Source: a virus
Lineage: Duplodnaviria > Caudoviricetes
Reading direction: 5' to 3' (one strand)
Length of the DNA: 54,528 nt
Virus record (IMG/VR): IMGVR_UViG_3300011441_000013
Location: 1-54,528 of that record
This document shows, one piece after another, positions 2,484-54,440 of the stretch. The notes beneath the pieces are model-generated. The model was given only the letters and a program-made list of their open reading frames with translations. It made no database searches and was not told the DNA's origin. Within the stretch, counting starts at the first letter, position 1. Every line of letters starts with the position of its first letter. A program made the translations under genes and the position numbers.

Positions 2484-2696
2484 GTGTTCGTGTTCGTCAC
2501 ATGGCTCTTCGCCCAAACTTTTCGGACTGACGTCGTCGGTCGTCTTGCGAAGCTCGCACAAGACAGCCAACGCTTTCCGCCTCCGCGCGTCTGGCGGCTC
2601 TACGCTTTTCTTCACTGGGCCGCCGACGATGAGACGTTGCGCTCCGCAGTCAAGCAAGCACACAATGAGTGGCGTCGACTGCGAGCGCAGCGATGA
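2484..2696 (+). CDS. YozE SAM-like small protein
   Basis: FVTWLFAQTFRTDVVGRLAKLAQDSQRFP...AHNEW resembles the YozE pattern; ATGA-coupled to the primase; start GTG 2484 or 2490. Confidence 0.55.
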   Translation: MFVFVTWLFAQTFRTDVVGRLAKLAQDSQRFPPPRVWRLYAFLHWAADDETLRSAVKQAHNEWRRLRAQR

Positions 2697-36576: not shown

Positions 36577-37019
36577 GGGGTCTCCTTCGCCAGAGTTTTC
36601 TGGCAATTCTTGCAGCTATCGTTTGGCGGTGCAGCGCCAAGCAGTCGTGTGTTGGCTGGCAGCGGCGTCTGAATGCAAAGCGAGAGTCCGCTGCGGAAGA
36701 AGTGCCACTTGCCGAGCATGGCCCAGCCTTCCGACAAGACGGTGGGCCGCGACATCTTCTTCACCTTGATCGTTCCATCTCGCATCATCTTGCACATGAC
36801 GTCGTCGGTAGAGTAGATGATGCTGGCGCCGCGGTTGCTGAGGTTGTGCATGGCACACTTGTAGCACATGTAGTACGATCGCTCGTCACCGTTGTCGATG
36901 ATTGTCACAGCCAGACTGCCGCAGGCGAAGTAACGGTGTCCAGACATCGGCGACGCTTCCTGACACTGCTGACCTTCTGGGATGTCGAAGAGATCTACGA
37001 CTGGCGTTATGACGCTCAT
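36573..37019 (-). CDS. Cys/His-rich hypothetical protein
   Basis: Several C/H clusters (CYKC, KWHFF...LC, CKNC). Confidence 0.6.
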   Translation of the reverse strand: MSVITPVVDLFDIPEGQQCQEASPMSGHRYFACGSLAVTIIDNGDERSYYMCYKCAMHNLSNRGASIIYSTDDVMCKMMRDGTIKVKKMSRPTVLSEGWAMLGKWHFFRSGLSLCIQTPLPANTRLLGAAPPNDSCKNCQKTLAKETP

Positions 37020-38348: not shown

Positions 38349-38993
38349 CTACGCGCGCCTCAACTTCACCGTCATGCGCGCGTAGACCGCCACGCCATCA
38401 GGCGGAGGTGCACCGGCGAGAGTTCTCTCCTTCGCGATGGCGTTCATCGATGAAGGCCAGAGCTGCAAGCTGCGCTCGAGGCCGCCGCCTGGCTTGAATG
38501 AATGATGCGTCCAGTTGGCATCTTCCCCACGTTCGTCTGTCCCGCGATGCCCGAGTGCACCTTCGTCGCCGCCGCAGGTCATGCAACGATCCGCAGGCGC
38601 CATGCACCACAGACGGAACGCCTCCTTGTCCTCGACCTTGCCTTCAGGCACAGAGCCGACATCGACCGCCGTGCCATCCTTCAACTTGACGGTGTTCGGA
38701 CCGGCACCGTAAGTTCCCCAACCCTCTTCGTCGTTGTCCCAGCTGGCGGCGAGCAGTTGCTCGAATGCGTCGATTTGAACTTGAAGCTCAGAACGCTTCG
38801 CGCTCACCTCAGCGTGAATGGCACGCACCGTCGCATATGCCGCCGCGAGCTGATCAGGCATCAGCTTGACGATCTCGCCCGTGCTCTTGTCGACACAGAT
38901 CTCGCTCTTCGCTGTGTCGACCTTCTCTTGATGCTTGGGATCGTCGATTGGCGCCGGCAACAGGCTGTCAATCACTGAGTCATACTTGCCCAT
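38349..38993 (-). CDS. Hypothetical replication-cluster protein with CxxC/His insertion
   Basis: Coiled coil, V.DKEAF..W, PPDGV.V; inserted CMTCG...GH...HHSF. Confidence 0.65.
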   Translation of the reverse strand: MGKYDSVIDSLLPAPIDDPKHQEKVDTAKSEICVDKSTGEIVKLMPDQLAAAYATVRAIHAEVSAKRSELQVQIDAFEQLLAASWDNDEEGWGTYGAGPNTVKLKDGTAVDVGSVPEGKVEDKEAFRLWCMAPADRCMTCGGDEGALGHRGTDERGEDANWTHHSFKPGGGLERSLQLWPSSMNAIAKERTLAGAPPPDGVAVYARMTVKLRRA

Positions 38994-39174: not shown

Positions 39175-40836
39175 TTACGCCGCCTCTTCACGCAGCACGC
39201 CGAGCCATCCGCTGGTCGTCAACGTCGCGAGATCGTGCTTCGCCATCAACATCGCCAGCGTGCGATGATCGATTGTCTTTTGTCCCTGCGGTCCTGTCGC
39301 GACGATGTCGAAGTAAGACACCGGCGACGTTTGACCTGGGCGGTGAAGTCGATCATCTGACTGAAGTCTGTAGTCGAGCGAGAAGTCGTTCGAGAGCGTA
39401 TACATCGTGTGACTGGCCGTCAAGTTCAAGCCGCGTGCACCAGCACTGACGCTCATCACGATGACCGCCGAGCCAGCCGGCATCGTGCGCGGGTCAAGGA
39501 TGCGCAGAGAGTTCCGTCGATCGTCTTTTGATTGTCCGCCGATGATCATTCCAGTCTCGACGATGCCCCTTGCCATCAGCTCCTTATGGAGTCGAAGCAC
39601 CTCTGGGCGAAAGCGACTGCGTACGAGGATCTTGATGGTTGGATCTTCAATCAGATGCTCATCAAGTCGCTGCATGAATAGATCGAGCTTCTCGCGGCTG
39701 ATCTCTTGAACAGACAAGATGGTGGCATTGTGATCGCCCGCGTTCATCCATTCGTCATGTTCTGGCTCATCGAAGCGCATGCCTTCGACGCCGCCCAAGA
39801 ATCCACTTGTGATTTGCGCCAGGCGCATGATCTTCGTCATGGCCTGCGGTGCTTGGCTGACGGTCGAGTTCGTCAACCATACGACAAGCTCGTCGCGCAT
39901 CTCTCTGTAGATCTTCCATGTCGCTGGATCGAGCGGCACCGTCAGCATCACAGGTGGTAACTTCGTCGGTAGATCGAGGCAGTCCTTCTTCAAGCGGCGC
40001 AGGACGTATGGCACGAACCGTTTGTTGATGTCTTCGATTCCACTCCAGGTGTCAACTGTCTTGATGGCGAAGCCGCGCTTCGATGTCAACGGCTTGCCGC
40101 CGAGACTCAGCACAGGCTTCATGATCGCGTAACGTCTGCAAAATTGTGTGTACGATGGACAGTTCAGAATCGTCTTGCTCATGATGTTGCCCTGACTAAA
40201 CATGTCGCCCGGACTGTTGGAGATCGGGGTGCCGTTCAACAAGGCAACACGGCCGCAGCGCTGACGCAGCTGCATGCACGCCTTCGACTGTGCGCTCTTT
40301 GAATTCTTGACCGCACTGGATTCATCGAGGATCAGCAACGTCTTTGGAGAACAGACGCCGAGCAACCTGACGAGCCGATGATCCTTTGCCTTGTCTGTGA
40401 CCTTGATGGTGTAGTCAATCGGTCTGATGAACTCATAGTTCGTGACGACCCATCGAAGGCGTTCTTCTGCCGTCGCTGTCTCTGGTCCATGCTTCCAAGC
40501 TCGGATTCTTGAATGGTATTCGGTGATCGTCGATGGGACGTCGGTCCAGAGGTGACGGGCGAGTTCTCCAAGCTCTTCGTCATACCAGACGCCAGTGCGA
40601 ACGCTCGACGGTGCGACGACAACCACTCTGTCGATCACGCCCCTCGTGAACAAGAACTGGGCTGCGACGATCGCCTGCGCGGACTTCATCGCTCCCATCT
40701 CGTCGAAGAGGGCGAAGAACGGATGATCGATGAGCGCCTGCACGCCGACCTTCGCATGCTCCTTGATTGCCGACGGACCTTCATCCGTCATCACCAAGCG
40801 GCAGCGGGAGAAGTCTAGCGTCGTGCCATCAGGCAT
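39175..40836 (-). CDS. SNF2-family helicase
   Basis: LFDEMGAMKS, NYE, ILDESS, LNGTP, RRLKKDCLDLP, GLNLT, QS.DRLHRPGQ. Confidence 0.92.
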   Translation of the reverse strand: MPDGTTLDFSRCRLVMTDEGPSAIKEHAKVGVQALIDHPFFALFDEMGAMKSAQAIVAAQFLFTRGVIDRVVVVAPSSVRTGVWYDEELGELARHLWTDVPSTITEYHSRIRAWKHGPETATAEERLRWVVTNYEFIRPIDYTIKVTDKAKDHRLVRLLGVCSPKTLLILDESSAVKNSKSAQSKACMQLRQRCGRVALLNGTPISNSPGDMFSQGNIMSKTILNCPSYTQFCRRYAIMKPVLSLGGKPLTSKRGFAIKTVDTWSGIEDINKRFVPYVLRRLKKDCLDLPTKLPPVMLTVPLDPATWKIYREMRDELVVWLTNSTVSQAPQAMTKIMRLAQITSGFLGGVEGMRFDEPEHDEWMNAGDHNATILSVQEISREKLDLFMQRLDEHLIEDPTIKILVRSRFRPEVLRLHKELMARGIVETGMIIGGQSKDDRRNSLRILDPRTMPAGSAVIVMSVSAGARGLNLTASHTMYTLSNDFSLDYRLQSDDRLHRPGQTSPVSYFDIVATGPQGQKTIDHRTLAMLMAKHDLATLTTSGWLGVLREEAA

Positions 40837-41664: not shown

Positions 41665-42135
41665 TCACAACCTTTCGGGGAAACCATACTCCACAGACTT
41701 CTTGTTGAACGCCTCTCTGATGCACTCGACCAGGTCGGCGTCAACTCTGGCGCACAGCAGCACGCCGTAGATGATCACATCGGCTACTTCCATGCCAATC
41801 TGCTTGCGGTAGCACTGTCTATTATTCAATGACAGGCCCATCTCGTATGATCGACTGTCGATGTTCGCGATCTGGTCCTCCACTCGTTTTAGTTTCTTTG
41901 CCGCATTGGCGGCCTCACCTGCCTCGCCGCACATCGCACCGGCCCACTCGAGAGGCGACCAGCTGTCGAGTGAGTGCCAGCGCGCTACGCGAGAGATGTT
42001 GGCGGCGATCAACTCTTGGAACGTGAGGATCGGAAACACGTCGCGGCCGCTATAGTGATAGCCGCAGGAGCATGGAACGCCAAGTTCAATGACGTTGTCG
42101 TTACCACAGTTGGGACACTTCCAGGAATTAGTCAT
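41665..42135 (-). CDS. MazG-like nucleotide pyrophosphohydrolase with N-terminal zinc ribbon
   Basis: GEAGEAANAAKK...EVADVIIY; WKCPNCG...CSCG. Confidence 0.85.
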   Translation of the reverse strand: MTNSWKCPNCGNDNVIELGVPCSCGYHYSGRDVFPILTFQELIAANISRVARWHSLDSWSPLEWAGAMCGEAGEAANAAKKLKRVEDQIANIDSRSYEMGLSLNNRQCYRKQIGMEVADVIIYGVLLCARVDADLVECIREAFNKKSVEYGFPERL

Positions 42136-42289
42136 CAGACTTCCTCGCTGCCTTCCAGAGGGCCTGCTGGATCATTACTGCGGCGACTCTCTCGCTGACG
42201 CGAAACTCCTTCGCGACGATCGACACGGCACGATTGCTGTCGTGCTGTTGAGTGATTTCATTGACGCGGATCGCGACTCGCTTCGTCAT
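42128..42289 (-). CDS. Small HTH-like protein (53 aa, not in ORF track)
   Basis: AVSIVAKEFRVSERVAAVMI. Confidence 0.5.
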   Translation of the reverse strand: MTKRVAIRVNEITQQHDSNRAVSIVAKEFRVSERVAAVMIQQALWKAARKSDD

Positions 42290-42300
42290 TCTTGATTCTC

Positions 42301-43065
42301 TCAATCTGGAAACTTCCCAATCATCGCCTGACGAGCGATCTGCTTGATCTCATCGGAGAATGTTGACTTCGATCCGCCCATCCACTTCCAGTAGTCGGAA
42401 TCGGCGTCTCGCATTGGCTTGCCTTGATACTTGCCAAACATGATCATGGCGACGCCATCGATTCGGCGAAAGAACCCCTCACAATCGATGAAGTCTGGCC
42501 ACTGCGCCTTGTGAAGTTCATCAAGATCACGTGACAAGATCTCATGCATCTTGAGTTGCCCAATGATGACGGCGTGGGATGCCTTCACGTCAGCCAATGC
42601 TCCGTGGGCATCGACGAGATCCACGCCGGTGTATTTCCTGTAGAGCGTGCTGAGATCTCGTGGGATGGCGAGAGCTTCCAGTCTGAAGCTGTCGACGATC
42701 CGCGCTCCGACGTAATCCCATTCTTGACTGGCGCGCTTCATCTCGTTGGCGATGATCTTCAAGTCGAAGCGTGTCTGTTGACCGCCGTAGTCACATCCGA
42801 CAAGACCCTTCGCCAAGTTCGCCGCCAGTGCCTGGAATCTTGGTGCGTTCTTCACCATCTCATCGGTGATGTGATGCACCTTCGTCGATGCTGATGGGAT
42901 TGGGATGCCTGGGTTGACGTAAGTTCGCCACTCCTTCGTCATGCCGGTAGCGTCCCAACGTTGAAATCCGATTTCGATGATTCGATCGGTTCTCGGATTG
43001 ATGCCGGTCGTCTCAGTGTCTAAGATGAACAACGGACGGGTGAGCGAGAGCAGTTCATTGAGCAT
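42301..43065 (-). CDS. DnaQ-like DEDDh 3'-5' exonuclease
   Basis: LDTETTG, RFD, HGALADV; C-terminal FGKYQGK. Confidence 0.9.
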   Translation of the reverse strand: MLNELLSLTRPLFILDTETTGINPRTDRIIEIGFQRWDATGMTKEWRTYVNPGIPIPSASTKVHHITDEMVKNAPRFQALAANLAKGLVGCDYGGQQTRFDLKIIANEMKRASQEWDYVGARIVDSFRLEALAIPRDLSTLYRKYTGVDLVDAHGALADVKASHAVIIGQLKMHEILSRDLDELHKAQWPDFIDCEGFFRRIDGVAMIMFGKYQGKPMRDADSDYWKWMGGSKSTFSDEIKQIARQAMIGKFPD

Positions 43066-43447
43066 GAGTTCTCCGAACGAAGTCCAACACGAAGCGATGA
43101 TCGAATCCATCGACGACCTCAACATCTTCTTCATCTGGCGTCAAGATGCACGTGCGTCGATGCGACAAGACATCTTCGTAGAGCACGACGTAACAGATGC
43201 CATTCGCAGCCAAGCGTCGACAGGTCAGCTGCTGAAGGGCGTTGGCCCAGACAACCTTCTCGCCGTGCTTCAATTCCCACCACGTGTCTTTCTTCTTCCA
43301 CGTGATGCTGATGTCTGGTGATCCTGACGTGAAGCCGTCTGAGTGCTTGATGATGACTGGCTTGGAAGCGTACTGCAATGCTGTTTCTGAAGCGAGCTCC
43401 GCACGAAGCAACTCAAGAAGTCCAGCTTGCAGCTTGCTCTCCGTCAT
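43055..43447 (-). CDS. PD-(D/E)xK nuclease, VRR-NUC/resolvase-like
   Basis: MTES.LQ, GSPDI, WWELK, LQ. Confidence 0.8.
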   Translation of the reverse strand: MTESKLQAGLLELLRAELASETALQYASKPVIIKHSDGFTSGSPDISITWKKKDTWWELKHGEKVVWANALQQLTCRRLAANGICYVVLYEDVLSHRRTCILTPDEEDVEVVDGFDHRFVLDFVRRTHAQ

Positions 43448-43761
43448 AACTTGACCAGTCGATGATCGAGGTAGTAGTAGACGGGGAAGTTCAACGCGAC
43501 CGCGACGTAGAGTTCAAGCTTGGCGCCCTTTGAGCCAGACCAGCCAGGCAACAACACGAGCGCGATGTCGTCATACTTCAACATCATGATGAGATCTCTT
43601 CTGAGCGAATCTTCCCACGAACGCCCATCGCTCGGTGGTGAGATCTCGTGTGGATTCAGCACTGAATGTCCTTCACATCGCAAGACGGCGGCAGCCTCTT
43701 CGAACGCTGGCCTGTTGTGAAGAGGGACATCTGACATCGGACCGCTGAGGTAGATGGTCAT
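43444..43761 (-). CDS. DUF4406 (nucleoside deoxyribosyltransferase-like) protein
   Basis: IYLSGPMS...N...F, VLNP, LLPGWSGSKGAKLE. Confidence 0.88.
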   Translation of the reverse strand: MTIYLSGPMSDVPLHNRPAFEEAAAVLRCEGHSVLNPHEISPPSDGRSWEDSLRRDLIMMLKYDDIALVLLPGWSGSKGAKLELYVAVALNFPVYYYLDHRLVKL

Positions 43762-44225
43762 TTGCCTTCCAACTGCTTGAGGATCAACTCTCGCATCAGT
43801 CGGCGATACGCCGCTCGATGCGAGAAGGATGCTGCGGCGTCGCCTGGGATCGTCTCCACCAGCGGCGGTAACATTCGTGGAATCTCTGTGAGCAGATGCT
43901 CGAAGAACTCATCTGTCAACAGATCAGCGTCCGTCTTGCTCATCTTAAATCTCCTTCCGATGACGTCGAGCTGATCTGAGATCAACTTCGACAATGATGT
44001 TTTCTGCTTGTCGGCGACCTTCTTGAGACAATCTTTCGTCTCTTGTCTGAGATCGACGCCGACGTAGGCTGGACGGATTTCTTGTGGCTTCCAGATTCCA
44101 GCCGCGACGACGATCTGACGAACACGCTGACCCGAGAGCTTGTAGCGCTCAGAAAGCGCTGCGATCGTCTGGCCCTCAATGTAGAGCTTGCAAAGTTCTG
44201 TGTTGCGTTCGGCGAAAGTCATCAT
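43758..44225 (-). CDS. DNA-binding protein (HTH plus RHH-like)
   Basis: G.TIAALSERYKLSGQRVRQIV; VGVDLRQETK..L...A.....SLSKLI. Confidence 0.7.
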   Translation of the reverse strand: MMTFAERNTELCKLYIEGQTIAALSERYKLSGQRVRQIVVAAGIWKPQEIRPAYVGVDLRQETKDCLKKVADKQKTSLSKLISDQLDVIGRRFKMSKTDADLLTDEFFEHLLTEIPRMLPPLVETIPGDAAASFSHRAAYRRLMRELILKQLEGK

Positions 44226-45292
44226 CAGCCTCTCATCGTCATGATCACATTGATGAAGCTGACGCCATCAGCAACAAGCAACGGCGACTTGTCACTCTTC
44301 ATCCCAATGGTGACGGTGTCTCCTTCGGCGACGTCCAAGAAGTCATGTAGATAACGCCAGTTGACACACATGATCAATGGATCGCCTTCGTAGTGCGCTG
44401 GCATCTGTTCATCGGCTTCTCCAACCTCGACGCTCTTCGACGAAAGACTGAGCGATTCCGAACTGATCGAAAGATACACAGCGCAGTTGTTCTCTGCGGC
44501 GACGCCGATGCGCTTCAGCGCGGCCGACAATCGCTTCCTGTCGACGGTCAATGTTTTGTTGTTGTCGCGTGGGATGATTCGCTCGTAGCTTGGAAACTTC
44601 CCCTCAATCATGCGTGACGTCAGCATCATGCCGTCGATCGAGAAGAACAAATGGTTGGCGCCAACCAGAACTGAGATCGGTCCTGTGCCAAGCACTGGCA
44701 GAATGTCCATCGTCTTGCGCGGAATTAGGATGGCGAAGTCTGGCCCTTCGTCTCGCACAGCAGTTGCGATCGATAGACGAGCACCGTCCGTCGCAATCAT
44801 GCCCATCGAGGTGCCGGAGAGCTTCAGCAATGCTCCTTCAAGTATGAACTTCTTGCCGCGATCAGCAACTGCGTAACGCGTTGCAGTGATGAGACGCATC
44901 AACAAGTTTCCTGCCAGCGTTGCTGGTTCACCTTCTGGGAATGCCAACGTTGGAAACTCAGCAGCTGGCAGCGTCTGTAGTCTTGACTTGAAGGTGGCGT
45001 GATGCACATGAGCACCCTTGGCATCAACAGCGATCGTGACGGTGCCGTCGGTAAACTGCTCGATTAGTTGAAGAGTCGTCGCAGCTGGCAATACACATCG
45101 ACCAGGCGTCGAGATTGTAGCTGGACATGTGAGCGCCAAGCTGACCTCAAGGTCTGTCGCTGAAAGACGGAGTTCATGATCGGCTTCGACCAGGACGTAA
45201 CCAAGAATCTGAATCGATGGCTGTGATTGGACAACTTTGCAGACGGCGCGGAGTGCCTCTGCAAGTTTCTGTGAGTTCACCGTGACGATCAC
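44225..45292 (-). CDS. dnaN: DNA polymerase III beta sliding clamp
   Basis: ATDLEV, EFP, ATDG.RL, SRMIEGKFPSYERIIP, N..YL.DFL, VIMTMR. Confidence 0.93.
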   Translation of the reverse strand: MIVTVNSQKLAEALRAVCKVVQSQPSIQILGYVLVEADHELRLSATDLEVSLALTCPATISTPGRCVLPAATTLQLIEQFTDGTVTIAVDAKGAHVHHATFKSRLQTLPAAEFPTLAFPEGEPATLAGNLLMRLITATRYAVADRGKKFILEGALLKLSGTSMGMIATDGARLSIATAVRDEGPDFAILIPRKTMDILPVLGTGPISVLVGANHLFFSIDGMMLTSRMIEGKFPSYERIIPRDNNKTLTVDRKRLSAALKRIGVAAENNCAVYLSISSESLSLSSKSVEVGEADEQMPAHYEGDPLIMCVNWRYLHDFLDVAEGDTVTIGMKSDKSPLLVADGVSFINVIMTMRG

Positions 45293-45822
45293 AACTGATC
45301 ACCCATGCAAGTCCATCCATCTCTCTGTTTGCGTGCGAACAACTCAACACGCGGACCGTCGAACAACGACTCGACAATCTTGTAGAACTCATCCGGCTTT
45401 TCTGAATGACGCCCAACTGTTGCCGAGAATCCAGTCACGTCGATGACGAACGTCGAGCGTGTTGAGTGATTCAAAACTTGTGGCTTGCCGCGCGTGGCGA
45501 TGAGACACGTCTCATGCTCAGCACGCAGAGTTCTTCCCATCCCAAACCATCTCATCCCATGTTCGGTTTTCTTCAGCCAGATGAGCTCCGTCTTGACGGT
45601 GAACCCCCACATGCGACAAACGTCAAGTGCCGCCTGTTGCATGCTCGCGACGCGCCAGAGAAAGAGCACACAGTCGGCGGCGAGGGGCGGCAGAGGGAAG
45701 CGGCAGATCTCTTCAAGCGTCATCGTAGAGTAGTGCCGTGCGGCACCGCGATTCTTGCCTGGAAGTTTGTCAGAGAACTTCCACGGCGGATCCGCCGCGA
45801 CGACGCGAAATGGTTCGCTCAC
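45289..45822 (-). CDS. MT-A70-family adenine methyltransferase
   Basis: ADPPW, HY.TM, LFLW, W.K, G.G...R..HE, HSEKP, ELFAR; GTGA-coupled start 45822. Confidence 0.92.
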   Translation of the reverse strand: MSEPFRVVAADPPWKFSDKLPGKNRGAARHYSTMTLEEICRFPLPPLAADCVLFLWRVASMQQAALDVCRMWGFTVKTELIWLKKTEHGMRWFGMGRTLRAEHETCLIATRGKPQVLNHSTRSTFVIDVTGFSATVGRHSEKPDEFYKIVESLFDGPRVELFARKQRDGWTCMGDQL

Positions 45823-46259
45823 CGAGTTCGCTCCACGATGTTCTTCATGAAAACCATCGCCAGCTGGACGTTTGCTGGATCGTTCCACCATCTGTTGATG
45901 CCAGATGGATGTGGCACGACTCTCACGTCTGCACCGCCGATCATCTGCTGGACGAAGTAGTCATGATGAGCATAGAACGCATCAGCGACGCGCAGGCCAA
46001 GCAGGATCACAATTTGATCGGACTTGAAGGTTGTCTTGAGCGCGGCCGCCTCGCCCTTCGCCGCCTCGATGTCAAACTGGAATTCATGCGCCGCTGTGTC
46101 TTGCCGATGGTGCAACAAGTTCACTCGATCGAAGTGATACAGAAACTCTGGCAGCGTCAGTCCGGCCATCGACGCCAGCCGTAGACCGATTCGACCTTCG
46201 ATCGGCTGCTCAAGTTGTTGGTTCTTCGACGGCGCCTCGCCGATGATGAGCGGCTTCAT
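45819..46259 (-). CDS. Uracil-DNA-glycosylase-superfamily protein (minimal)
   Basis: IIGEAPS, G..L, N, VILLG, VPHPSG. Confidence 0.8.
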   Translation of the reverse strand: MKPLIIGEAPSKNQQLEQPIEGRIGLRLASMAGLTLPEFLYHFDRVNLLHHRQDTAAHEFQFDIEAAKGEAAALKTTFKSDQIVILLGLRVADAFYAHHDYFVQQMIGGADVRVVPHPSGINRWWNDPANVQLAMVFMKNIVERTR

Positions 46260-46699
46260 TCCAACTCACCTTTCTTGTTTAACCTGAACCAACGCTGCCG
46301 TGTATCTTCCATCGCCTGCTTGATGCGCGGAGAGTTCTCGGCTTGCTTTAAGTCTAGTTGAAGCGCAAGAACCTGAGCTTGAATCACTTTGCCATAACGG
46401 CAATTCTCGTGCTTAGTGCCAGGACCAGTGACGTGGATGCACCAGCTCTTTCCATTGCGGTGTTTCCTGATGATGCGCATCAAGACTTCGCACTTCGGAT
46501 GTCCGCATTTGACCCAAGTATCAAACGCACGCTTTTCAAGATCTGGTGGCAGCACGCGACTATGAAAGCTTGCACGTGACCTCATCGAATTCCGCAGCGG
46601 TGTTATGAACGTGCGAAGCTCTTGCCAGATCGGCAGCTCCATGATTGCAGGAGCAACTGGCAGCAGCGGCTTCCGTTCGTGTTTTTTCTTTCTCGTCAT
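46256..46699 (-). CDS. Hypothetical basic protein with C/H residues
   Basis: GAGGTG RBS; CGHPKC...CIH...HENC. Confidence 0.65.
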   Translation of the reverse strand: MTRKKKHERKPLLPVAPAIMELPIWQELRTFITPLRNSMRSRASFHSRVLPPDLEKRAFDTWVKCGHPKCEVLMRIIRKHRNGKSWCIHVTGPGTKHENCRYGKVIQAQVLALQLDLKQAENSPRIKQAMEDTRQRWFRLNKKGELE

Positions 46700-46712
46700 A
46701 GTGACACCTCTG

Positions 46713-49700
46713 TCACTTGCAATCTGCCCACGTCGGGCCGATCTTGCCTTCCCATAGGATCGGCACTCGCATGTTGGGGAAGCTCTGATGATTCAGAATC
46801 TCCATCATCGCCGGCAGCGTTCCTTCATCGTTGGCATCGCCAACGAGTTCATCGTGTGCCGTGATGCGCATCAAGAACCCAGTTGCCTTGCGTACCTTAT
46901 GCAAGTCAACTGTCTTTCGCTTCAGAATGTCTGCGCCCGTGCCTTGAATGACACGGTTCAATCCGATGTAGGTCTTGTAGGCGTTCGGAAAACGTGAGCG
47001 ACGTCCAAGCATCGTCTTGACGAAGCCACGATGCTGGAATTGCCGATGCATGGCGTCATTGGGCCTGCAGTATTCATCGCAGGCAGGCTTCGCAAGATGC
47101 GCGGCTCGGGCCAGCAGCTGATCGCCTTCCGGCATCATCTTGCTGTAAGCTCTCTCGATCTCATGAATCGTGTTGAGTCGTGGATCGTCCCACCTCTTTG
47201 CTCGACGAATCTCCGCGCCGATTCGTTCGGTGATGAACCTCATCATCACGGCGAGCTTGATACTCTTGGCGCCATACTGCCGGGCGAAGTTGAAGTTCTT
47301 CTGATGACTGTAGACCATGTCGGCCTTGTATGCCTTCATGCGTTCCCACGTCATCTTATGAAACGACAGCCGCGGATCTTTTCTGTATGCCTCAATCATC
47401 TCCATGTTCTTGGCGAGATGAACGAAGATCCGATACTCGATCTGCATGGCATCTGACGCCAATGCAATGCCTGTCGCCGACCTGAAGAGGCGGCGCGGAA
47501 ACAACGCACACAGTCCTGCACAGTCATCGACTAGACCTTCGCCGAACGCCTTGTGATGATTGTCGTGGTTTGGCACCTGCTGAACGTAGCCAATCGAGAA
47601 GCGACCGCTGACCGTGCCACCGTCATCGCCACGCAGTTGATTGATCTCAAAGCGGAGAATCCCGTCTGGGCCGATCTGCTCTCTGTAAGGCTTGAATACC
47701 TTCGAGTTAAGCGATGCGTACTGCGCCGCCTTCTGCCCCTTGCGCACCAACGGATGATCGATCTCTTCCAGTGCAGCTTCGTCGAACGCATCTGGCGTCG
47801 GCAATCCAAGCTTATCGAGCAGTCGCGTCCACCCCGTCGCTGTATGATCGAAGGCGAAACCGATCTCCTTGGAGATGTCCCAGACCAATTGATCATGTGT
47901 CGCTAAACATTCAGCTGCATACTTTTCGAGCAACTCCATGTCGATCGGAGCACCATTCTTCTCCATCTCTACGACGGCTGGGATGACCTCGTCTTCGAGA
48001 TCATGGACGGCACGAAGATCTTGCTCGTCGATCTGTGGCTGGAGCTTGGCGGTGAGCTTGGCAACAAGTTCTGCCGTGAAGCGTTCACGTTCAGCAACAT
48101 CTAACGCATGATGATTTGCATGACGTGATTCATCAACTCTTGCCACGATTGGAACGTCCGGCAAGTATTGCTCTGCCAATATGTCAATCGCGAACCGCTT
48201 GCGATGGTCATCGAGCAATGCCGCCGTGTGTTGAATATCCGAGAACGTGCAGCCTTGCTCTTCAAGATCGACGTCCCAGACCCTCGCCATGTGGCAGTCG
48301 AACTTCGTCTTGGCGTTGACGATCCTCTTGTGCTTGAGTTGCTCTTTCGCCCACCGCTTGATCACCGCTTCATCATGATTGCCTCCGTAGGCAAAGCCGA
48401 AGGGCAGAAAGCGGATCATCTGACCATCGAGCGTTCCAACGGTGAGACCGACAGGCCGATCGCCCTTCGCCCAGTCGAGGCCAGATGTGGCGAAGTTCAA
48501 GACGACCGCGTCGATACCTGTCAGGTCGGGCGGTTCGTCAGGCTTCCAGTCGGCATCGAGCTTAGTTGATGGCGTGCCGATGAATTCGATTGCCGTTGGT
48601 GCCGGCGGTCCTACAAACATCGGTGCCTGCGATACAGGGACCGTTGGTTGATCAGCAGCCGTCTGTGCTGGATCGGCGATCGTGATCAGCTCAGGCTTGA
48701 GCGCCTTGATCTTGATCAGATCGTCGCCGCTGAGCTTCGTTGCATTGCTGGCGAAGAGTTTTCCATCACGCGTCAGCAGTCGATGTCCCTTTGCTTCCAG
48801 CTCGGCTTTGAAGAGCTGCGCCTCGGAGGGGGCCACAGGGGGCGACAGGGGCGGCTCTGGAGCTGCCTGGACGGCCGTAGCTTCTACAGGCCTGGCTCTA
48901 GCCAGCCCAACCCGTTCGGTAGCTGTGGCAGGCTGCTCCAGGGTGGTAGGCACCGAGGCGAAGTCCAGCGCGGACGGGCCTATTCTACCGGTAGCAACTA
49001 CCCTCAACGTCGAGTTCGGCTTGAGAGTTCCAGCTGGTATCGTCAACTCTCCGCCAGGCATCACGCCGAGCGTCAATCCAAAGTCGTCGCCCTCTGTGAT
49101 GACGACGCCTTCTCTCATGACGAGATGATTGTGATCGGCGAAGTGCCGATAGTCAACCTGATGCTGCCAGCGACGCCACTTTCGCTCAACGCTTGTGCGA
49201 TCTGGATGTTGCTCCAGCAGCGACTGAGCCATCAACCAGCGGCCATCCTTCTTCAGGATCTCGCGACCTACGTCGCAAGGTCCTGGATCGATTCCCTTGT
49301 AGCCATCGAGACACCGTCGACACTGCTCGCAGTTGGCGGCATGATCTTGCCACTCATTGGCCATCGCCTCGACGCCGGCGTAGAGTTGGTCAGTGTTGCC
49401 GCCCTTCATCGTGAGCGTCGGCTTCTTGTACATCAAGAACGCGTTGAAGAGTGCGGTGCACCAACGCCCTTGATACCCGTTCTGTGGAGTGGCACCATCC
49501 TTCAAGATGCGAAGCGAGAGATCTGTGTCCTCATTGTAACGTCCGCGCCATCGGATTTGATTGCCAGCGAAGTCAGTCAGATCGTTGCGAAGCAAGATGC
49601 CGGAATAGCAACGAGTGTTCAATGTGATCGGCTTGATCTTTGCACCTTGCTTGCGCGGCGCGAAGTAGTCGTAGTTGAACGCCGCCATTGGAACATTCTC

Positions 49701-50345
49701 GTAGCGATCGACGAAGTCCTCGACGAGCTTCAACAAGATGCCGGAGTCAACCTCGACCTTGAGGTTGTCTTGAAAGCGACAGAAGCCAGAGATGTTGTCG
49801 TCGAAGATCCAGTGCCGTTCAGCGCCGGTGCTGATTGCATGCTCCCATACCCAATTACGCGCTGGGATGCCGCCGAGCCCAAGGTTCGAGAACGGCAGAA
49901 CGAGGATCTTTGCAGGATCGATGACGGCGGCGTAGTCGTTGAACTCCTGCGGCTCGATGACGATATGATATGGGACGCCGGTGAACTCAAACGCCTTCGA
50001 CGTCAAGCGGGTGTCGGCTCTGCTCTTCGAGATGATGTAGACCGGGTATCGAGGATTGCCCTTCGCGCCAGTCCAGACCTTGTCGGCTGCAGTGCCGATC
50101 GTCGCCTTCGGATGCCAGATGAACTTCGTGTTTGAATGAAGTGCTTGACCAACGAGCGTAGCGAAAGTTTGACGATCTTCCTGTGTCTTGAAGTGCACGT
50201 AGATCGACTGCCACGGTTCGAGCTTCTCGTGGCTATACTCTGGCATTCCCTGCCAGTTGTCCTTCCAGTCAGGATCGACCTCGAACAAATTGTCTTGTTC
50301 TTCGCTGCCCGGCAGCGGCGCGTCGTCGCGTGGATCGTCACTCAT
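46713..50345 (-). CDS. Fusion: TAGT/GREB1-like glycosyltransferase + linker + degenerate 3'-5' exonuclease + family A DNA polymerase
   Basis: YPVYIISKSR, VIEPQE...Y, ARNW.WEH, HW.FDDN, WRGRYNEDTDLSLR.LK, KGGNT; PolA motifs SGRFS, DAMQIEYR, KNFNF...YG, N.VIQGTGAD, HDEL. Confidence 0.9.
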   Translation of the reverse strand: MSDDPRDDAPLPGSEEQDNLFEVDPDWKDNWQGMPEYSHEKLEPWQSIYVHFKTQEDRQTFATLVGQALHSNTKFIWHPKATIGTAADKVWTGAKGNPRYPVYIISKSRADTRLTSKAFEFTGVPYHIVIEPQEFNDYAAVIDPAKILVLPFSNLGLGGIPARNWVWEHAISTGAERHWIFDDNISGFCRFQDNLKVEVDSGILLKLVEDFVDRYENVPMAAFNYDYFAPRKQGAKIKPITLNTRCYSGILLRNDLTDFAGNQIRWRGRYNEDTDLSLRILKDGATPQNGYQGRWCTALFNAFLMYKKPTLTMKGGNTDQLYAGVEAMANEWQDHAANCEQCRRCLDGYKGIDPGPCDVGREILKKDGRWLMAQSLLEQHPDRTSVERKWRRWQHQVDYRHFADHNHLVMREGVVITEGDDFGLTLGVMPGGELTIPAGTLKPNSTLRVVATGRIGPSALDFASVPTTLEQPATATERVGLARARPVEATAVQAAPEPPLSPPVAPSEAQLFKAELEAKGHRLLTRDGKLFASNATKLSGDDLIKIKALKPELITIADPAQTAADQPTVPVSQAPMFVGPPAPTAIEFIGTPSTKLDADWKPDEPPDLTGIDAVVLNFATSGLDWAKGDRPVGLTVGTLDGQMIRFLPFGFAYGGNHDEAVIKRWAKEQLKHKRIVNAKTKFDCHMARVWDVDLEEQGCTFSDIQHTAALLDDHRKRFAIDILAEQYLPDVPIVARVDESRHANHHALDVAERERFTAELVAKLTAKLQPQIDEQDLRAVHDLEDEVIPAVVEMEKNGAPIDMELLEKYAAECLATHDQLVWDISKEIGFAFDHTATGWTRLLDKLGLPTPDAFDEAALEEIDHPLVRKGQKAAQYASLNSKVFKPYREQIGPDGILRFEINQLRGDDGGTVSGRFSIGYVQQVPNHDNHHKAFGEGLVDDCAGLCALFPRRLFRSATGIALASDAMQIEYRIFVHLAKNMEMIEAYRKDPRLSFHKMTWERMKAYKADMVYSHQKNFNFARQYGAKSIKLAVMMRFITERIGAEIRRAKRWDDPRLNTIHEIERAYSKMMPEGDQLLARAAHLAKPACDEYCRPNDAMHRQFQHRGFVKTMLGRRSRFPNAYKTYIGLNRVIQGTGADILKRKTVDLHKVRKATGFLMRITAHDELVGDANDEGTLPAMMEILNHQSFPNMRVPILWEGKIGPTWADCK

Positions 50346-50971
50346 CGGCTTGCCGTGAACGCCCGCTTACGAGCAGAGACTACAGTCAACCCAGATTCTT
50401 CAAGGTAACGACGCACGTCGGCGATGCGCTGCTCACGATTGGCGATTGGATGGAACTCGATGAAGAGCGACCTCACGCTGCGGAGATCTCCAGGGCACAA
50501 GCTTGCGAGCAAGTCGTACTCGGCGCCTTCGACATCGAGCTTGAGGACAGAAGGCCGCAGCGTGAGCAGAGAGCGGCGGAAGTTGACCGCCGACACCTCG
50601 ATGAACTTCATTCGGCGCGTCTGCGGCAGAATGCTGTTCGCGCCAGAGAATCCAGACAAGTTCAACGAGACGGTTGAATCATTTGATGCGACGAGCGCCG
50701 CCTCGATGACGCCGATCTGTTGATAGCGGCTGCAGTTCTGTCGAAGCATCGCGGCGTTCTTCGGCGCGGCCTCATAGCATGTGACGTAGGCGGCGCCTTG
50801 CTCGACGCAGGCGATTGCGAACGTGCCGATGTAGGCACCACAGTCCATCACGGTTGCGCTGCGTGGCAGCTCGAGATGCTCGAAGGGGTTGTGCTTCTCC
50901 AGATCGTTGCGTAACCAGAACGCAGACGTCGGAATCATGAAGCTTGATGGAAGAACGTCCCCGTAGCGCAT
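50342..50971 (-). CDS. FkbM-family SAM-dependent methyltransferase
   Basis: VMDCGAYIGTF, CYEA, LKLDVEGAEY, IEFH. Confidence 0.9.
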   Translation of the reverse strand: MRYGDVLPSSFMIPTSAFWLRNDLEKHNPFEHLELPRSATVMDCGAYIGTFAIACVEQGAAYVTCYEAAPKNAAMLRQNCSRYQQIGVIEAALVASNDSTVSLNLSGFSGANSILPQTRRMKFIEVSAVNFRRSLLTLRPSVLKLDVEGAEYDLLASLCPGDLRSVRSLFIEFHPIANREQRIADVRRYLEESGLTVVSARKRAFTASR

Positions 50972-50977
50972 GGAAGT

Positions 50978-51055
50978 TTACTCGACTGAAAAGGTGTCGT
51001 CGGGACGAACGATCCAGATCTTCCGGGTTGGTTTGGGAGCTTCAACGAACGCCAT
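50978..51055 (-). CDS. 25-aa upstream ORF in frame with the FkbM gene
   Basis: MAFVEAPKPTRKIWIVRPDDTFSVE*, then ACT TCC ATG. Confidence 0.4.
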   Translation of the reverse strand: MAFVEAPKPTRKIWIVRPDDTFSVE

Positions 51056-51066
51056 TTGGGAATGGC

Positions 51067-51095
51067 ACTATACTACAAAATAAAAGGAATGTAAA
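51067..51095 (-). promoter_or_regulatory. Sigma70-type promoter P3 of the DNA modification/replication operon
   Basis: TTTACA-ttccttttattttgtag(17)-TATAGT; 16 nt identical to P2. Confidence 0.8.
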
Positions 51096-51109: not shown

Positions 51110-51151
51110 AAAAAAGCAAAGCGACCCAGCGAATTTCTCCGCTGAGTCGCT
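51110..51151 (-). terminator. Intrinsic terminator
   Basis: AGCGACTCAGCG-8 nt-CGCTGGGTCGCT-TTGCTTTTTT on the - strand. Confidence 0.8.
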
Positions 51152-51174: not shown

Positions 51175-51666
51175 CTAGAGTTCGGCCGCCGGCGCCGCCG
51201 CGAGCTTGACGCGCGCAGCCGTGAGCCGCGCTTCCATCTTCGCGATCTTCTCCGCTGCGGTCGGCTTCGGCAGCGCGGCGCGCTGTTCCTTCGTCAGCTT
51301 CACCTTCGGCTGACGCGGGACCTTGACGGCGAAGACTCCCTCGGCGACTTCAATCGTCGCCGGTGCCGTCTTGTTGGGGAACGCGCGGAGCGACATGCGG
51401 ATCGTGCCGGTCGTCCCGGCGTAGATGGCAGTCGTTCCCTTTCGGTTGAGACCGTGCAGGGTGAGGTTCATGGTCGGTGCTTTCTGCGCCCCTTGGGCGT
51501 CTGAGTTCGGTGCCGGGATTGGCGCCGACTGTTGAGACTCTACTATAGCTGCGGCGGAACTGTCCAGCGAAATGTTGGGACTACCGCTCAGCGCGGCACC
51601 TTGCTGGCTTCGATCGACTGGCTTGTGCTTTCGTTTCTTTGCTTTCTTGGCCTTGTGCTTCATCAC
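51175..51666 (-). CDS. Lys/Ala-rich basic protein
   Basis: GAGGTG RBS; KHKAKKAKKRKHK N-terminus. Confidence 0.65.
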   Translation of the reverse strand: MMKHKAKKAKKRKHKPVDRSQQGAALSGSPNISLDSSAAAIVESQQSAPIPAPNSDAQGAQKAPTMNLTLHGLNRKGTTAIYAGTTGTIRMSLRAFPNKTAPATIEVAEGVFAVKVPRQPKVKLTKEQRAALPKPTAAEKIAKMEARLTAARVKLAAAPAAEL

Positions 51667-51693: not shown

Positions 51694-52663
51694 TCATCTC
51701 GAAACATCGTAGACCTTCGGCGCTGCGATCTTCATCGGCTTGTCGTCCGGACCCTTGACGTAGGCATCAATCCAGATGAGCTTGCGTTCTCTGCGGCCTG
51801 GACCGACAGGCTGATTACGAATGTGACCCTCGACGATCCAGCGAACGGAGTATTCCCGCTTCGATTCTCCCTCCGTCGGCTCGTGTGTTGCTGTCGCTCG
51901 TTTGCGTAGCTGCACCACGCGCACCTTGTCAAGCTTCTCCGTGCCTGTGTGACGATCGAAGTCCTTCCGCGCGTGGCGCTCCACGTGTCCGTCGACAAGC
52001 TCCAGCGGCGCGAGCTTTTGGTTGAGCCAGAGCAACGCGCCGAGGATGAAGCGACTGATCTTCTCAGTCGCATGCATGAACTTGTCCTCGCCGAGGATTT
52101 GTACATCGCGGAACTTGCCGATAGGCCCATATTGCATCCAGTGTTCGTGACGAGCGCGGTCCAGCAGCTCAGCGATGGTCTCGCCTGGCATCCAATACCA
52201 GACTTGCGACGGCAACAGGGCGCCGGCCTTCGCCTCGAGTTGATAGACGCCGTGAGCGGATGCTGCACGTGGACGGTTCGTCGACACCCAACAAATGACG
52301 GCAAACACGCCGTCGATCCATCCCCATGCACAACGCCTTCAGCGGATCAGGTTGAATCACCGTTTGCACCTGCAGCGGCTCGTCGAAGTGCCACCACACG
52401 GCGGTCGTCGACAAGTTCCACTCGTTCAACTGAGCGTCGAGTGGGATCTTCTCCGCAAGCGCCAGCACCGCCGCCGTAGGATCTTTCGCCCAGAAGAACG
52501 GCCGCGCCACCGGCAAGAGCTTGGCGCCGATGAGAAAGTCATTCGCCGTGAGCATCTTCTTCCAGGCTTCCGATGGTCTCATCTTCACCACTCGCATGAC
52601 GGCTAGCGCCTGAAGCTGACTCTCGATCGCCGCCATGTATTCCCGACCTGCGCGGGGGATCAC
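51694..52663 (-). pseudogene. Frameshifted gene of the W-x-V-x-G-H-x-R-N-Q family (one extra G at 52322-52325)
   Basis: Removing one G from ATG GGG A gives ...LKALCMG-WIDGVFAVICW... and a 322-aa ORF ending VRWIVEGHIRNQPVGPGRRERKLIWIDAYVKGP. Confidence 0.7.
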
Positions 52664-53796
52664 TTGCCACCTCCAATCAGCTTCGTCGAGGTCGTCGTCG
52701 ACTTGAGAGCCTTGCTGAGCACCATCTTGTCGGCGGCCGCTCGTCCTGCAGCCCGTCCGGCCGCGTGGTCGGCCATCCCGCCGTTCAGCGCGGCAGAGTA
52801 GCGGCGGCGCTTCTTGAACTTCCCGTCGATGTATTCCTGCGCCTTGACCAGGCACCCATCGAGGCGCAGCAGCGCGGTCGACGTAGAGCCTGGCGCGTCG
52901 GCAGGGGCCGCAGCGACTGCCGCGACTCTGCTCTCCTTGAAGCGGTCCGCGATCCGCTCGACGAAGGCCATCAGCCACGCGGCGTGGAACCCGTGCGCCT
53001 CCTTCGCGTTGCCATGCTCCGCCTTACACTTGGCATAGAACTTCCGCCAGTCGGTCATCGAGAGCTGGTAAGCCGCCGGCACCAGCACGCCGTACGCATA
53101 CTCTGCGACCATCGCGTGGCTGCGAGTTCCGACGAACCAGACGTTGTTCGAGCCCGCCTGGATGAGGAACTTGCAAAGGTGCGCGCGAGCGACGACCCGA
53201 GCGAGTTCTTCCTGCCACGCGATGCGAGTCCGCTTCTTCACGATGCGATACTTCGTCAGGTCAACCGCCATCTCGATGACCGGGTCACGGTCGCTCGCGC
53301 GTGCGTAGTCGAGGTCGCTCGGGTTGAGCTCGTACTCGAGCAACATCTTGTTGATCATCGAGGCGAACGCCTCAGCGGCTTCCGTGTTGCCGATCTCCGC
53401 CTCCGACTCTCTCGACGCCTGCATCTTCACGAGACGCTCGATGACGCGATCGCGATGGTCAGACTGCTGATGCCTCATCGCGAGGATGAGTTCCTCTTCG
53501 AACTCCTGGAAGGCGACGCCGTGATTGAAGTGCCGCAAGTGCGCGAGTTCGTGCGCGCCCGTCTTCCAGACTTCTTCAGGGCTGATCGGCTCTTCCGTCC
53601 AGACGCCGTTCACCATGCCGCGCATCGCGATGGTGACGTCGCCGCTCGCAGAGCAGTAGCCGAGCGCGGACGTCGCGAGCTCGGGGTTCGCCACAGGCGC
53701 GACGGACTTGAGCTGCAGGTCGTAGTTCTTCGCCACGCGGCGCATCGCCGTGGCGACCTCGTGGAAGAGCAGGACGTCGTCAGGATGAAGATTCAT
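52660..53796 (-). CDS. HExxH (SprT/WLM-like) domain + DUF2786-like protein
   Basis: HELAHLRHFNHG..F; RVIERLVKM.......GNTEAAEAF......ML..Y. Confidence 0.8.
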   Translation of the reverse strand: MNLHPDDVLLFHEVATAMRRVAKNYDLQLKSVAPVANPELATSALGYCSASGDVTIAMRGMVNGVWTEEPISPEEVWKTGAHELAHLRHFNHGVAFQEFEEELILAMRHQQSDHRDRVIERLVKMQASRESEAEIGNTEAAEAFASMINKMLLEYELNPSDLDYARASDRDPVIEMAVDLTKYRIVKKRTRIAWQEELARVVARAHLCKFLIQAGSNNVWFVGTRSHAMVAEYAYGVLVPAAYQLSMTDWRKFYAKCKAEHGNAKEAHGFHAAWLMAFVERIADRFKESRVAAVAAAPADAPGSTSTALLRLDGCLVKAQEYIDGKFKKRRRYSAALNGGMADHAAGRAAGRAAADKMVLSKALKSTTTSTKLIGGGK

Positions 53797-54440
53797 TAGC
53801 GGCCGCCCTTCACGTCCGAGACGCGGTAGCCGAGCGCGTTCACGAGGCTGGCGAAGGTCTCTCTCTTGGCGATGAGCGTCGCGACCAGCATGTCGACGTT
53901 GCCATTGCCTTGAAGCTCGCCGCAGCTGTTGAGCCCGAAGAACTCCACAGCGGCTGCGGCTGGCGTGATGCTGAACTTCCGCGAGAAGCCCTTTTGTTCC
54001 AGCTCGACCGCGCCGCCGCGATCTGGATTGCGGCGCAGCGTCTGCTTGATGTCGGACATCTTACGAGCGACGTAGTCCGCCATCTCGTCGAGCTTCGTCG
54101 TGGCGGTGATGACATCGTCCATCGCGGAAGAGAGCGCGTAGAAGTCCTGACGCGTCTTGCAGCTGGCTTCCGTCCCGTCGAAGAGCGGCTTGGAGAGTTC
54201 CTTGTCGCGAGCTTCCATCGCAGCGACGTCGGGGATGGTGACGACGGTCGAACCCTTGACGGCGAACTCCTGATGCATGTCGTAGCCTTCGATGAGCGGC
54301 TCGGAGTTCGCCAGGCGGGCCTTGCGAGCGGAAGTCTTAACATACAGCGATGTGGTGCCACTGATTCTGCACTCGGCACCAATCGTCAGCAGGTCGAAGC
54401 GGATGTTCTTGAAGAGCATTGGCAGCGTTGAACGAAACAT
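53796..54440 (-). CDS. Early hypothetical protein (variant N-terminus MFRS created by the deletion junction; native start at 135)
   Basis: ORF track plus terminal overlap. Confidence 0.75.
   Translation of the reverse strand: MFRSTLPMLFKNIRFDLLTIGAECRISGTTSLYVKTSARKARLANSEPLIEGYDMHQEFAVKGSTVVTIPDVAAMEARDKELSKPLFDGTEASCKTRQDFYALSSAMDDVITATTKLDEMADYVARKMSDIKQTLRRNPDRGGAVELEQKGFSRKFSITPAAAAVEFFGLNSCGELQGNGNVDMLVATLIAKRETFASLVNALGYRVSDVKGGR

Follow-up and report, generated by a model that had tools for sequence, protein, structure and literature searches.

How does a phage glycosyltransferase find an acceptor on DNA when no enzyme that would prepare one is in sight? To our knowledge, every DNA sugar pathway worked out so far begins from a hydroxylated pyrimidine. 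The question is raised by virus record IMGVR_UViG_3300011441_000013, whose 54,528 bp make up the window analyzed here and which is 100% complete according to CheckV. An earlier note had described an operon for DNA modification at positions 41665 to 51095 of this window, in which a glycosyltransferase (GT) of the TAGT type is joined to a DNA polymerase (GT-Pol), and had remarked that the genome shows no trace of the hydroxylating enzyme on which such a transferase should depend. What is new here is that the transferase is a two-part module, an N-terminal domain (ND) followed by a GT-A core, that is abundant, rarely lies beside a dioxygenase, and is fused or adjacent to DNA-handling domains.

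The GT-Pol protein and the search for an acceptor-making enzyme

The TAGT model (PF20691) matched GT-Pol at amino acids (aa) 100 to 316 (E = 4e-33, 115.5 bits against a cutoff of 27.5). Upstream of this core, ND carries the motif W..W.GMPEF...VHF...F..L.GQ...KTKSIW.P. When 24 full-length relatives of GT-Pol and 42 transferase modules of the clade were aligned, D182-D183-N184 and E272-D273-x-D275 proved invariant in both alignments, as did several Arg, His, and Trp residues of the core, which is ~50% identical across very different phages. DDN and EDxD are both candidates for the DxD-type motif that binds metal and sugar-nucleotide. An AlphaFold2 (AF2) model of ND-GT reached a mean predicted local distance difference test (pLDDT) score of 79.6, with ND poorly resolved. 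Foldseek matched this model to TarS, TarP, SpsA, and GnT-I in the PDB with probability 1.0 and template modeling (TM) scores of only ~0.3, and to TAGT-named phage models in BFVD with target-normalized TM scores of up to 0.91. A GT profile run against PDB sequences returned only Hpy99I at chance level (E = 0.94), and this match was set aside.

The polymerase half starts at about aa 600, after a low-complexity linker, and matches DNA_pol_A (PF00476) at aa 853 to 1208 (E = 1.7e-22, 80.3 bits). It appears active as judged from its residues, since PolA motifs A, B, and C are kept, with D965, E970, K1016, Y1024/G1025, and H1164-D1165 invariant or nearly so among the 24 relatives. It is ~26% identical to phage PolA proteins, including some annotated as DpoZ. 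The 3'-5' exonuclease region gave no PF01612 match at E ≤ 0.01, and its ExoI acidic residues seem to be replaced, judging by eye from the consensus; this apparent loss would fit the presence of a separate RNase_T gene in the operon.

To search for an acceptor-making enzyme, the whole record was scanned in six frames with hidden Markov models (HMMs) at E ≤ 1. No match was obtained for Tet_JBP (PF12851), the oxygenase families 2OG-FeII_Oxy_2 / 2OG-FeII_Oxy_3 (PF13640 and PF13532), the thymidylate synthases ThyA (PF00303, Thymidylat_synt) and ThyX (PF02511), C5-methyltransferases (PF00145), TGT (PF01702), PurZ-like proteins of the adenylosuccinate synthetase type (PF00709), or radical SAM enzymes (PF04055). 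As positive controls, Tet_JBP recovered the oxygenase of Nonlabens phage P12024L (96.1 bits) and an oxygenase beside a member of the clade (68.1 bits). A custom dioxygenase (5mYOX) HMM, built from four dioxygenases that adjoin related transferases, gave a best E value of 0.3 in the window, in an alternative frame inside a helicase gene. Pfam searches of 20 further minus-strand open reading frames (ORFs) and of 43 plus-strand or alternative ORFs returned only replication, packaging, and structural families (primase-polymerase, helicase, terminase, portal, tail, and the like). With all six-frame searches negative and the Tet_JBP control positive, the observation that this complete genome holds no recognizable acceptor-making enzyme stands.

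The same searches removed several candidate systems. The PolA half resembles DpoZ-annotated polymerases, yet a 2-aminoadenine (PurZ/DpoZ) system was rejected because PF00709 is absent; it also resembles polymerases that neighbor QueE, yet a 7-deazaguanine (DpdA) system was rejected because PF01702 is absent. Membership in the C5-methyltransferase/5mYOX/GT type of cluster was dismissed on the absence of both PF00145 and PF12851. A radical SAM enzyme as acceptor maker, an idea taken from a TAGT-radical SAM fusion (protein P0080), found no counterpart here, PF04055 being absent. P0080 and a second protein, P0081, combine TAGT with a radical SAM/SPASM domain, which may be an alternative route of acceptor preparation.

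The earlier note had also pointed to the ORF at 46256 to 46699 (ORF147) as a possible hidden acceptor maker, a role for which it makes a poor candidate. Its sequence has no HxD motif, only one homolog was found among 5.8 billion proteins, and it is missing from L169 and L001, the two closest GT-Pol loci among the listed matches. Its AF2 model, built with that one homolog, has a pLDDT of 54, which is too poor for a fold search, so no fold is claimed for it. ORF147 has a conserved C-x-H-x2-C...H...H-x2-C cluster and is likely a zinc- or nucleic-acid-binding protein, and it is not conserved as part of the module.

Abundance, partners, and genomic company of the ND-GT module

The transferase module reaches much further than its fusion to the polymerase. 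Among 86 matches to the full protein, 84 contained TAGT and 56 of these 84 also contained PolA; at least 596 stretches of viral contigs were matched by the module alone, as were at least 600 of metagenome contigs and 84 of species-representative genomes. Isolate genomes that carry it in prophage-like regions belong to Pantoea, Erwinia, Pseudescherichia, and Acidobacteriaceae. At 74 of 81 viral loci, ND either adjoins the core, often as a separate upstream ORF, or is fused to it, and its profile matched 3,483 representative clusters at E ≤ 1e-3. When 61 of the best 150 ND proteins, chosen by length, were scanned, 14 contained TAGT, 4 contained ParB_N, 1 contained another GT-A-type domain, and no other enzyme class was found among them. 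ND also occurs in tandem, with two copies per protein at loci L037, L041, and L081 and five matched stretches in the 979-aa protein P0096.

Members of the clade are able to operate with a dioxygenase but usually have none close by. Neither Tet_JBP nor ThyA turned up in any of 50 related viral records (50 of the 81 loci), 8 of which are near complete (≥90%). Of 48 genomes carrying the module, 3 gave a Tet_JBP match at E ≤ 0.01, with 1 exceeding the cutoff. Combined phmmer and HMM searches of up to 10 kb on each side placed a dioxygenase next to the module in 4 of 239 loci, namely, L020 (which lies outside the 50 viral records), L151, L090 (via L164), and L131 (via L165); all 4 belong to the 159 loci of the first two collections, and none to the 80 metagenome loci. 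A weak Tet_JBP match at L166 (E = 2.1e-4) was discarded because it looks by eye like a PD-(D/E)xK nuclease and shows no relation to the other dioxygenases. The premise that a TAGT enzyme needs a TET or hydroxymethylase partner thus fails for this clade, in which partnerless loci are the rule; the gap that the earlier note saw is real, but it is a property of the whole clade rather than a peculiarity of this phage. In a 2023 NEB preprint on ~25,000 phage GT contigs, ~65% have no 5mYOX or ThyS nearby, and GTs adjoin polymerases, ParB, helicases, terminases, and clamps (10.1101/2023.12.21.572611).

Cultured phages also offer examples. Vibrio phages 1.076.O and 1.124.O carry the module with neither the Tet_JBP nor the ThyA family, Vibrio phage henriette has a ThyA homolog, and in Aeromonas phage phiAS5 one ThyA-family match was obtained (314.7 bits). 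In phiAS5, the ND-GT homolog (L249; NC_014636.1, 148662 to 149861) is named "beta-glucosyl-HMC-alpha-glucosyltransferase" in RefSeq; given the one ThyA-family match, this name may be overtransferred.

The company of the module was counted in the 159 loci of the first two collections, with up to 10 kb fetched on each side and with domain-limited profiles for UDG-like, PolA, and ParB_N. ParB_N was fused or within 3 kb in 61 loci; within the same distance lay a large terminase in 22, an SNF2 helicase in 11, a sugar epimerase or dehydratase in 8, a clamp in 6, and FkbM in 3. UDG-like domains were fused in 2 loci and adjacent in 2, and PolA was fused in 2 and adjacent in 1. Among ten upstream ORFs examined with Pfam, six matched ParB_N, only two of them above the curated cutoff. 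ParB_N-ND proteins precede the GT in the wider clade, and no ParB was found in the window itself. Domain scans revealed PolB-TAGT, TAGT-RecT, TAGT-N6_N4 methylase, TAGT-radical SAM/SPASM, TAGT-UDG-exo-PolA, and TAGT-GT1 architectures, as well as three that include FkbM (TAGT-FkbM, FkbM-ParB_N-TAGT, and ParB_N-FkbM).

FkbM-family enzymes can O-methylate sugars, and the FkbM gene of the window is closely tied to the transferase. Its stop codon overlaps the start of GT-Pol by 4 nucleotides (nt), and FkbM adjoins the GT in loci L169, L008, L091, L097, L193, and L228. Of its six longer homologs, 46 to 55% identical to the window protein, four are fused to TAGT and two carry ParB_N; a search of PDB sequences with the window FkbM gave no match. 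The idea that the product is a methylated sugar-base therefore gains from a strong FkbM-GT link and remains a prediction from gene content.

The closest metagenome relative listed, L169, whose GT-Pol is 61% identical, keeps the order FkbM, GT-Pol, UDG-like, MT-A70, clamp, helix-turn-helix (HTH), and exonuclease. UDG-like domains are also found directly behind ND-GT, as ND-GT-UDG or TAGT-UDG-exo-PolA, in L012/L183, L184, L008, and protein P0064. These fusions suggest that the UDG-like protein of the window, for which a search of PDB sequences found no match, may serve the transferase or the polymerase rather than plain repair.

Layout of the operon and its surroundings

The gene content and coordinates given in the earlier note were essentially right by Pfam, with every operon gene on the minus strand (Table 1). 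The genes are coupled throughout by overlaps of 1 to 8 nt (-4, -1, -8) or by small gaps, and the coupled run extends beyond 41665, as far as the SNF2 helicase gene. Some labels fared less well: the "HTH" assignment at 43758 to 44225 is weak, the Sigma70_r4 match being below threshold; the "nuclease," which is probably the ORF at 43055 to 43447, shows a PD-(D/E)xK-like motif by eye and no HMM match; and the MazG gene is only MazG-like, since it falls below the Pfam cutoff. The true start of MT-A70 is probably the GTG at 45822. A promoter-like site, P3, does precede FkbM, but because the whole scan found 6 such sites against 3.9 ± 2.1 in shuffled sequences, it is suggestive only.

Table 1. Features of the GT-Pol operon and its borders
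Feature	Position	Strand	Basis or remark
SNF2-family helicase	39175..40836	-	End of coupled run, outside the originally noted region
Zinc-ribbon and weak MazG-like pyrophosphatase	41665..42135	-	MazG-like 23.8 bits, cutoff 27
RNase_T/DnaQ-like 3'-5' exonuclease	42301..43134	-	RNase_T 5e-21
130-aa protein	43055..43447	-	PD-(D/E)xK-like motif by eye; probably the "nuclease" of the earlier note
DUF4406/nucleoside 2-deoxyribosyltransferase-like protein	43444..43761	-	DUF4406 1.6e-20; phrog_355 1.1e-32
155-aa protein	43758..44225	-	Sigma70_r4 match below threshold only
DNA polymerase III beta sliding clamp	44225..45292	-	All three beta-clamp domains
MT-A70 family (N6-adenine type) methyltransferase	45289..45891	-	Pfam 1.1e-27
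UDG-superfamily protein	45819..46259	-	UDG 2.1e-5, 25.1 versus cutoff 24.3; GEAP and HPSG motifs, no cysteines
Basic Cys/His-rich protein, 147 aa (ORF147)	46256..46699	-	No Pfam family
TAGT-glycosyltransferase/PolA fusion (GT-Pol), 1210 aa	46713..50345	-	Pfam TAGT and DNA_pol_A
Family A polymerase part, about aa 600-1210	46713..48548	-	Exonuclease-like region and polymerase domain
GT-A core, TAGT family, about aa 97-426	49068..50057	-	PF20691, alignments, AF2
ND N-terminal domain, ~80 aa, about aa 15-95	50061..50303	-	No Pfam family; alignments
FkbM-family S-adenosylmethionine (SAM) methyltransferase	50342..50971	-	FkbM/Methyltransf_21 8.4e-11; PF05050 42.7 bits versus cutoff 22.7
Sigma-70-like promoter, P3 (TTTACA-17-TATAGT)	51067..51095	-	10/12 matches; just after hairpin
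Terminator-like hairpin	51120..51151	-	14-bp stem then T run; closes upstream unit

No relative at the DNA level emerged when the region was compared by megablast with 50,697 phage records, and contigs nearly identical to the window sequence were present in several freshwater-sediment runs. Contigs from one RNA-library run covered six places in the operon, including the FkbM/GT junction (50206 to 50405); they were not taken as evidence of transcription, because the share in that run is small and DNA carryover is possible. One contig of run X3 omits 393 nt at 45750 to 46144, across the UDG-like/MT-A70 junction, which may point to a strain variant of the operon.

Elsewhere in the window, a Prim-Pol/PriCT_1 primase-polymerase gene at 2669 to 5091 on the plus strand indicates that the phage carries a second replication block on the opposite strand; the gene after it probably bears the DUF5906/VapE-like helicase matches of the batch scan. 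Between 2669 and 34671, one ORF out of the 43 plus-strand or alternative ones matched the PAP2 (phosphatase) superfamily (7.8e-9), which is unusual within a phage structural region. On the minus strand at 51694 to 52978, a gene of ~330 aa is broken between two frames, with one portion in the middle of ORF 52169-52978 and the other in ORF 51694-52308. This split is not a one-off assembly error, since contigs of two other runs span the break without indels. The intact 333-aa ortholog, L001:2936-3937, resembles an AcrVA2-family anti-CRISPR protein (0.98 by ESM Atlas features and a structural TM score of 0.65 to 0.70), a match that we treat as a lead only.

What the transferase may act on

The TAGT family was reportedly defined by Iyer et al. 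in 2013, and the kinetoplastid base J glucosyltransferase (JGT) is said in that work to be a TAGT-type GT-A enzyme acting on DNA. JGT is eukaryotic, needs 5-hydroxymethyluracil (5hmU) made by JBP, and has no polymerase fusion, unlike the window GT. A phage system that invites comparison is that of Nonlabens phage P12024L, whose genes 26 to 28 encode a methyltransferase, a 5mYOX, and a GT of the same Pfam family (26% identity over aa 102 to 285). As in the window, this GT sits among replication genes and adjoins a DNA methyltransferase; however, P12024L has a PF12851 oxygenase directly upstream and no ND, whereas the window has ND, the polymerase fusion, and FkbM but no oxygenase. The T6 enzyme that adds a second glucose is likewise a TAGT protein, according to a 2026 paper (PMC13390438). 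This T6-type beta-glucosyl-HMC-alpha-glucosyltransferase, a name borne by the BFVD match of rank 21, acts on glucosyl-5-hydroxymethylcytosine (glucosyl-hmC) that depends on a pre-replicative ThyA-like hydroxymethylase, while the window has no ThyA-like gene.

The neighborhood of the module resembles that of the ParB-dependent thymine dioxygenase systems. In a 2026 description of these systems, the surroundings of phage dioxygenases contain GTs (31%), ParB (27%), terminases (19%), polymerases (5%), and also O-methyltransferases (PMC13229309). These are the neighbors that we observed, yet those systems are defined by the dioxygenase, and the window has neither dioxygenase nor ParB and has the polymerase as a fusion partner instead. 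Neither a TAGT-polymerase fusion nor the ND domain turned up in our literature search, although supplementary lists may hold such cases.

Direct observations comprise the domain makeup, the conserved residues of the catalytic type, the absence of any known partner, and the repeated joining of the transferase to enzymes that handle DNA. The reading that we favor, and to which we would give an even chance, is that nascent phage DNA is glycosylated by a replisome-tethered transferase, that FkbM methylates the sugar, and that the acceptor comes from no known pathway. We infer that DNA is the target, that the enzyme acts at the fork, that the sugar is methylated, and that the product protects. The operon would then serve phage replication and include its own unit for decorating DNA: the transferase would travel with the replisome, a clamp being encoded 1.4 kb downstream; a sugar would pass from a host nucleotide-sugar to freshly synthesized phage DNA; FkbM, being translationally coupled, would then methylate it; and the product would serve as an anti-restriction mark. 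The acceptor would not be 5-hydroxymethylcytosine (5hmC), 5hmU, or 5-hydroxycytosine (5hoC) from a recognizable phage enzyme; the sugar may be attached straight to a canonical base or DNA group, or the acceptor may come from a class of enzyme that has so far had no connection with DNA hydroxylation. 5hoC is made by ThyA homologs (PMC13326640).

Several links carry this reading. A DNA-directed transferase is favored because the partner domains are unrelated in fold and have only their DNA substrate in common. That polymerases of both family A and family B have been fused independently suggests action at the fork, ParB and terminase neighbors suggest action on DNA that is being loaded or packaged, and the FkbM-TAGT fusions make a methylated sugar a reasonable guess. 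A more specific proposal, namely, that ND and GT-A, brought to DNA by a polymerase (as here), by ParB, or by a terminase neighborhood, directly glycosylate a canonical base or some other native group of DNA that need not be hydroxylated first, and that FkbM O-methylates the sugar, is put forward as a possibility of low probability.

A number of observations weigh against the favored reading. We know of no precedent for direct glycosylation of a canonical base by the TAGT family. The presence of a dioxygenase beside L020, L090, L131, and L151 implies that the clade can use hydroxymethyl acceptors. L001, whose GT-Pol is 59% identical, also has a clamp, an HTH gene, an exonuclease, and a helicase, and blastp found no FkbM, UDG-like, or MT-A70 gene there, so these three appear dispensable. 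Portal and head-morphogenesis genes flank the module in Vibrio phage 1.076.O. Several palindromes are also underrepresented in the window relative to a maximal-order Markov expectation, including GTAC (33 versus 105 expected), CTAG (28 versus 71), GGCC (201 versus 310), and CCGG (152 versus 209); CATG is low as well (240 versus 320), and GATC is not avoided (519 versus 564). The shortage of the first four suggests that many sites are exposed and that any mark is probably partial or sequence specific, which argues against bulk replacement of C or T. The genome also holds ORFs without an assigned function, which bear on the possibility of a concealed first enzyme considered below.

It is possible, though doubtful, that the target is not DNA at all but a protein (the polymerase, the clamp, ND, or a host defense or receptor protein) or a small molecule, with the fusions serving coexpression or localization. 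ND pairs almost only with glycosyltransferases among the 61 proteins scanned and is often a separate small protein that could be an adaptor or the acceptor itself, and the structural setting of the 1.076.O module would suit such a target. There is also a precedent in GREB1, a TAGT relative that reportedly glycosylates a protein as an O-GlcNAc transferase (PMC7968844); its TAGT-related domain is like that of the window GT, but GREB1 is an animal protein. UniRef gives the name "GREB1-related" to one of the full-protein matches (P0083). Against a non-DNA target, the fusion partners (PolA, PolB, RecT, ParB_N, UDG, and DNA methylase) all handle DNA and have unrelated folds, and the characterized family members that two sources describe act on DNA (PMC13390438; 10.1101/2023.12.21.572611).

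An unannotated ORF that hydroxylates T or C, so that the GT makes a base-J-like or glucosyl-hmC-like base, is unlikely. Divergent enzymes of this kind do exist, since thousands of contigs that match a dioxygenase profile lack Pfam TET/JBP annotation (PMC13229309), and four clade members adjoin a dioxygenase; places for such an enzyme would be the ORFs at 51175-51666, 53796-54440, 38349-38993, 36573-37019, 1559-1972, and 367-1602 and a DUF7168 protein. However, neither the Pfam models nor the HMM from GT-adjacent dioxygenases found anything in the window, an HxD...H pattern was seen by eye in no suitably sized ORF of this set, the split 333-aa family resembles AcrVA2 (a lead only) and not an oxygenase, and Tet_JBP and ThyA are likewise absent from all eight near-complete related records. 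An acceptor supplied by the host or a coresident prophage, such as a host DNA modification inherited by the phage, is very improbable: the lack of a phage-encoded source and the module's occurrence in prophage-like regions speak for it, and the rarity of above-cutoff Tet_JBP matches among module-bearing genomes (1 of 48) speaks against it. We give equally little credence to the idea that the GT domain lacks catalytic activity and is carried by the polymerase as a structural or DNA-binding appendage. No observation favors this directly, the exonuclease region offering just one example of a seemingly degenerate domain, and it is countered by the conservation of the core across very different phages and by its invariant acidic and basic residues.

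Sugar modifications of phage DNA govern how readable it is by restriction enzymes, CRISPR systems, and sequencing chemistries. The locus described here is a clean case of a transferase without the first step, in a complete genome, with the GT welded to a replicative polymerase and with a very large clade around it whose members mostly have no partner. The fusions to two unrelated polymerase families and the dedicated methyltransferase that is fused in relatives make the question of orphan GTs directly testable, and the cultured carriers (Vibrio phages 1.076.O and 1.124.O, and phiAS5 with its one ThyA-family gene) make a direct test by liquid chromatography-mass spectrometry possible. Should the acceptor prove to be a native base, the chemistry would be new to DNA and the enzyme a possible tool. 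Direct glycosylation would then be a one-step class of DNA modification and would account for the great number of glycosyltransferases that seem "orphan" in phages.

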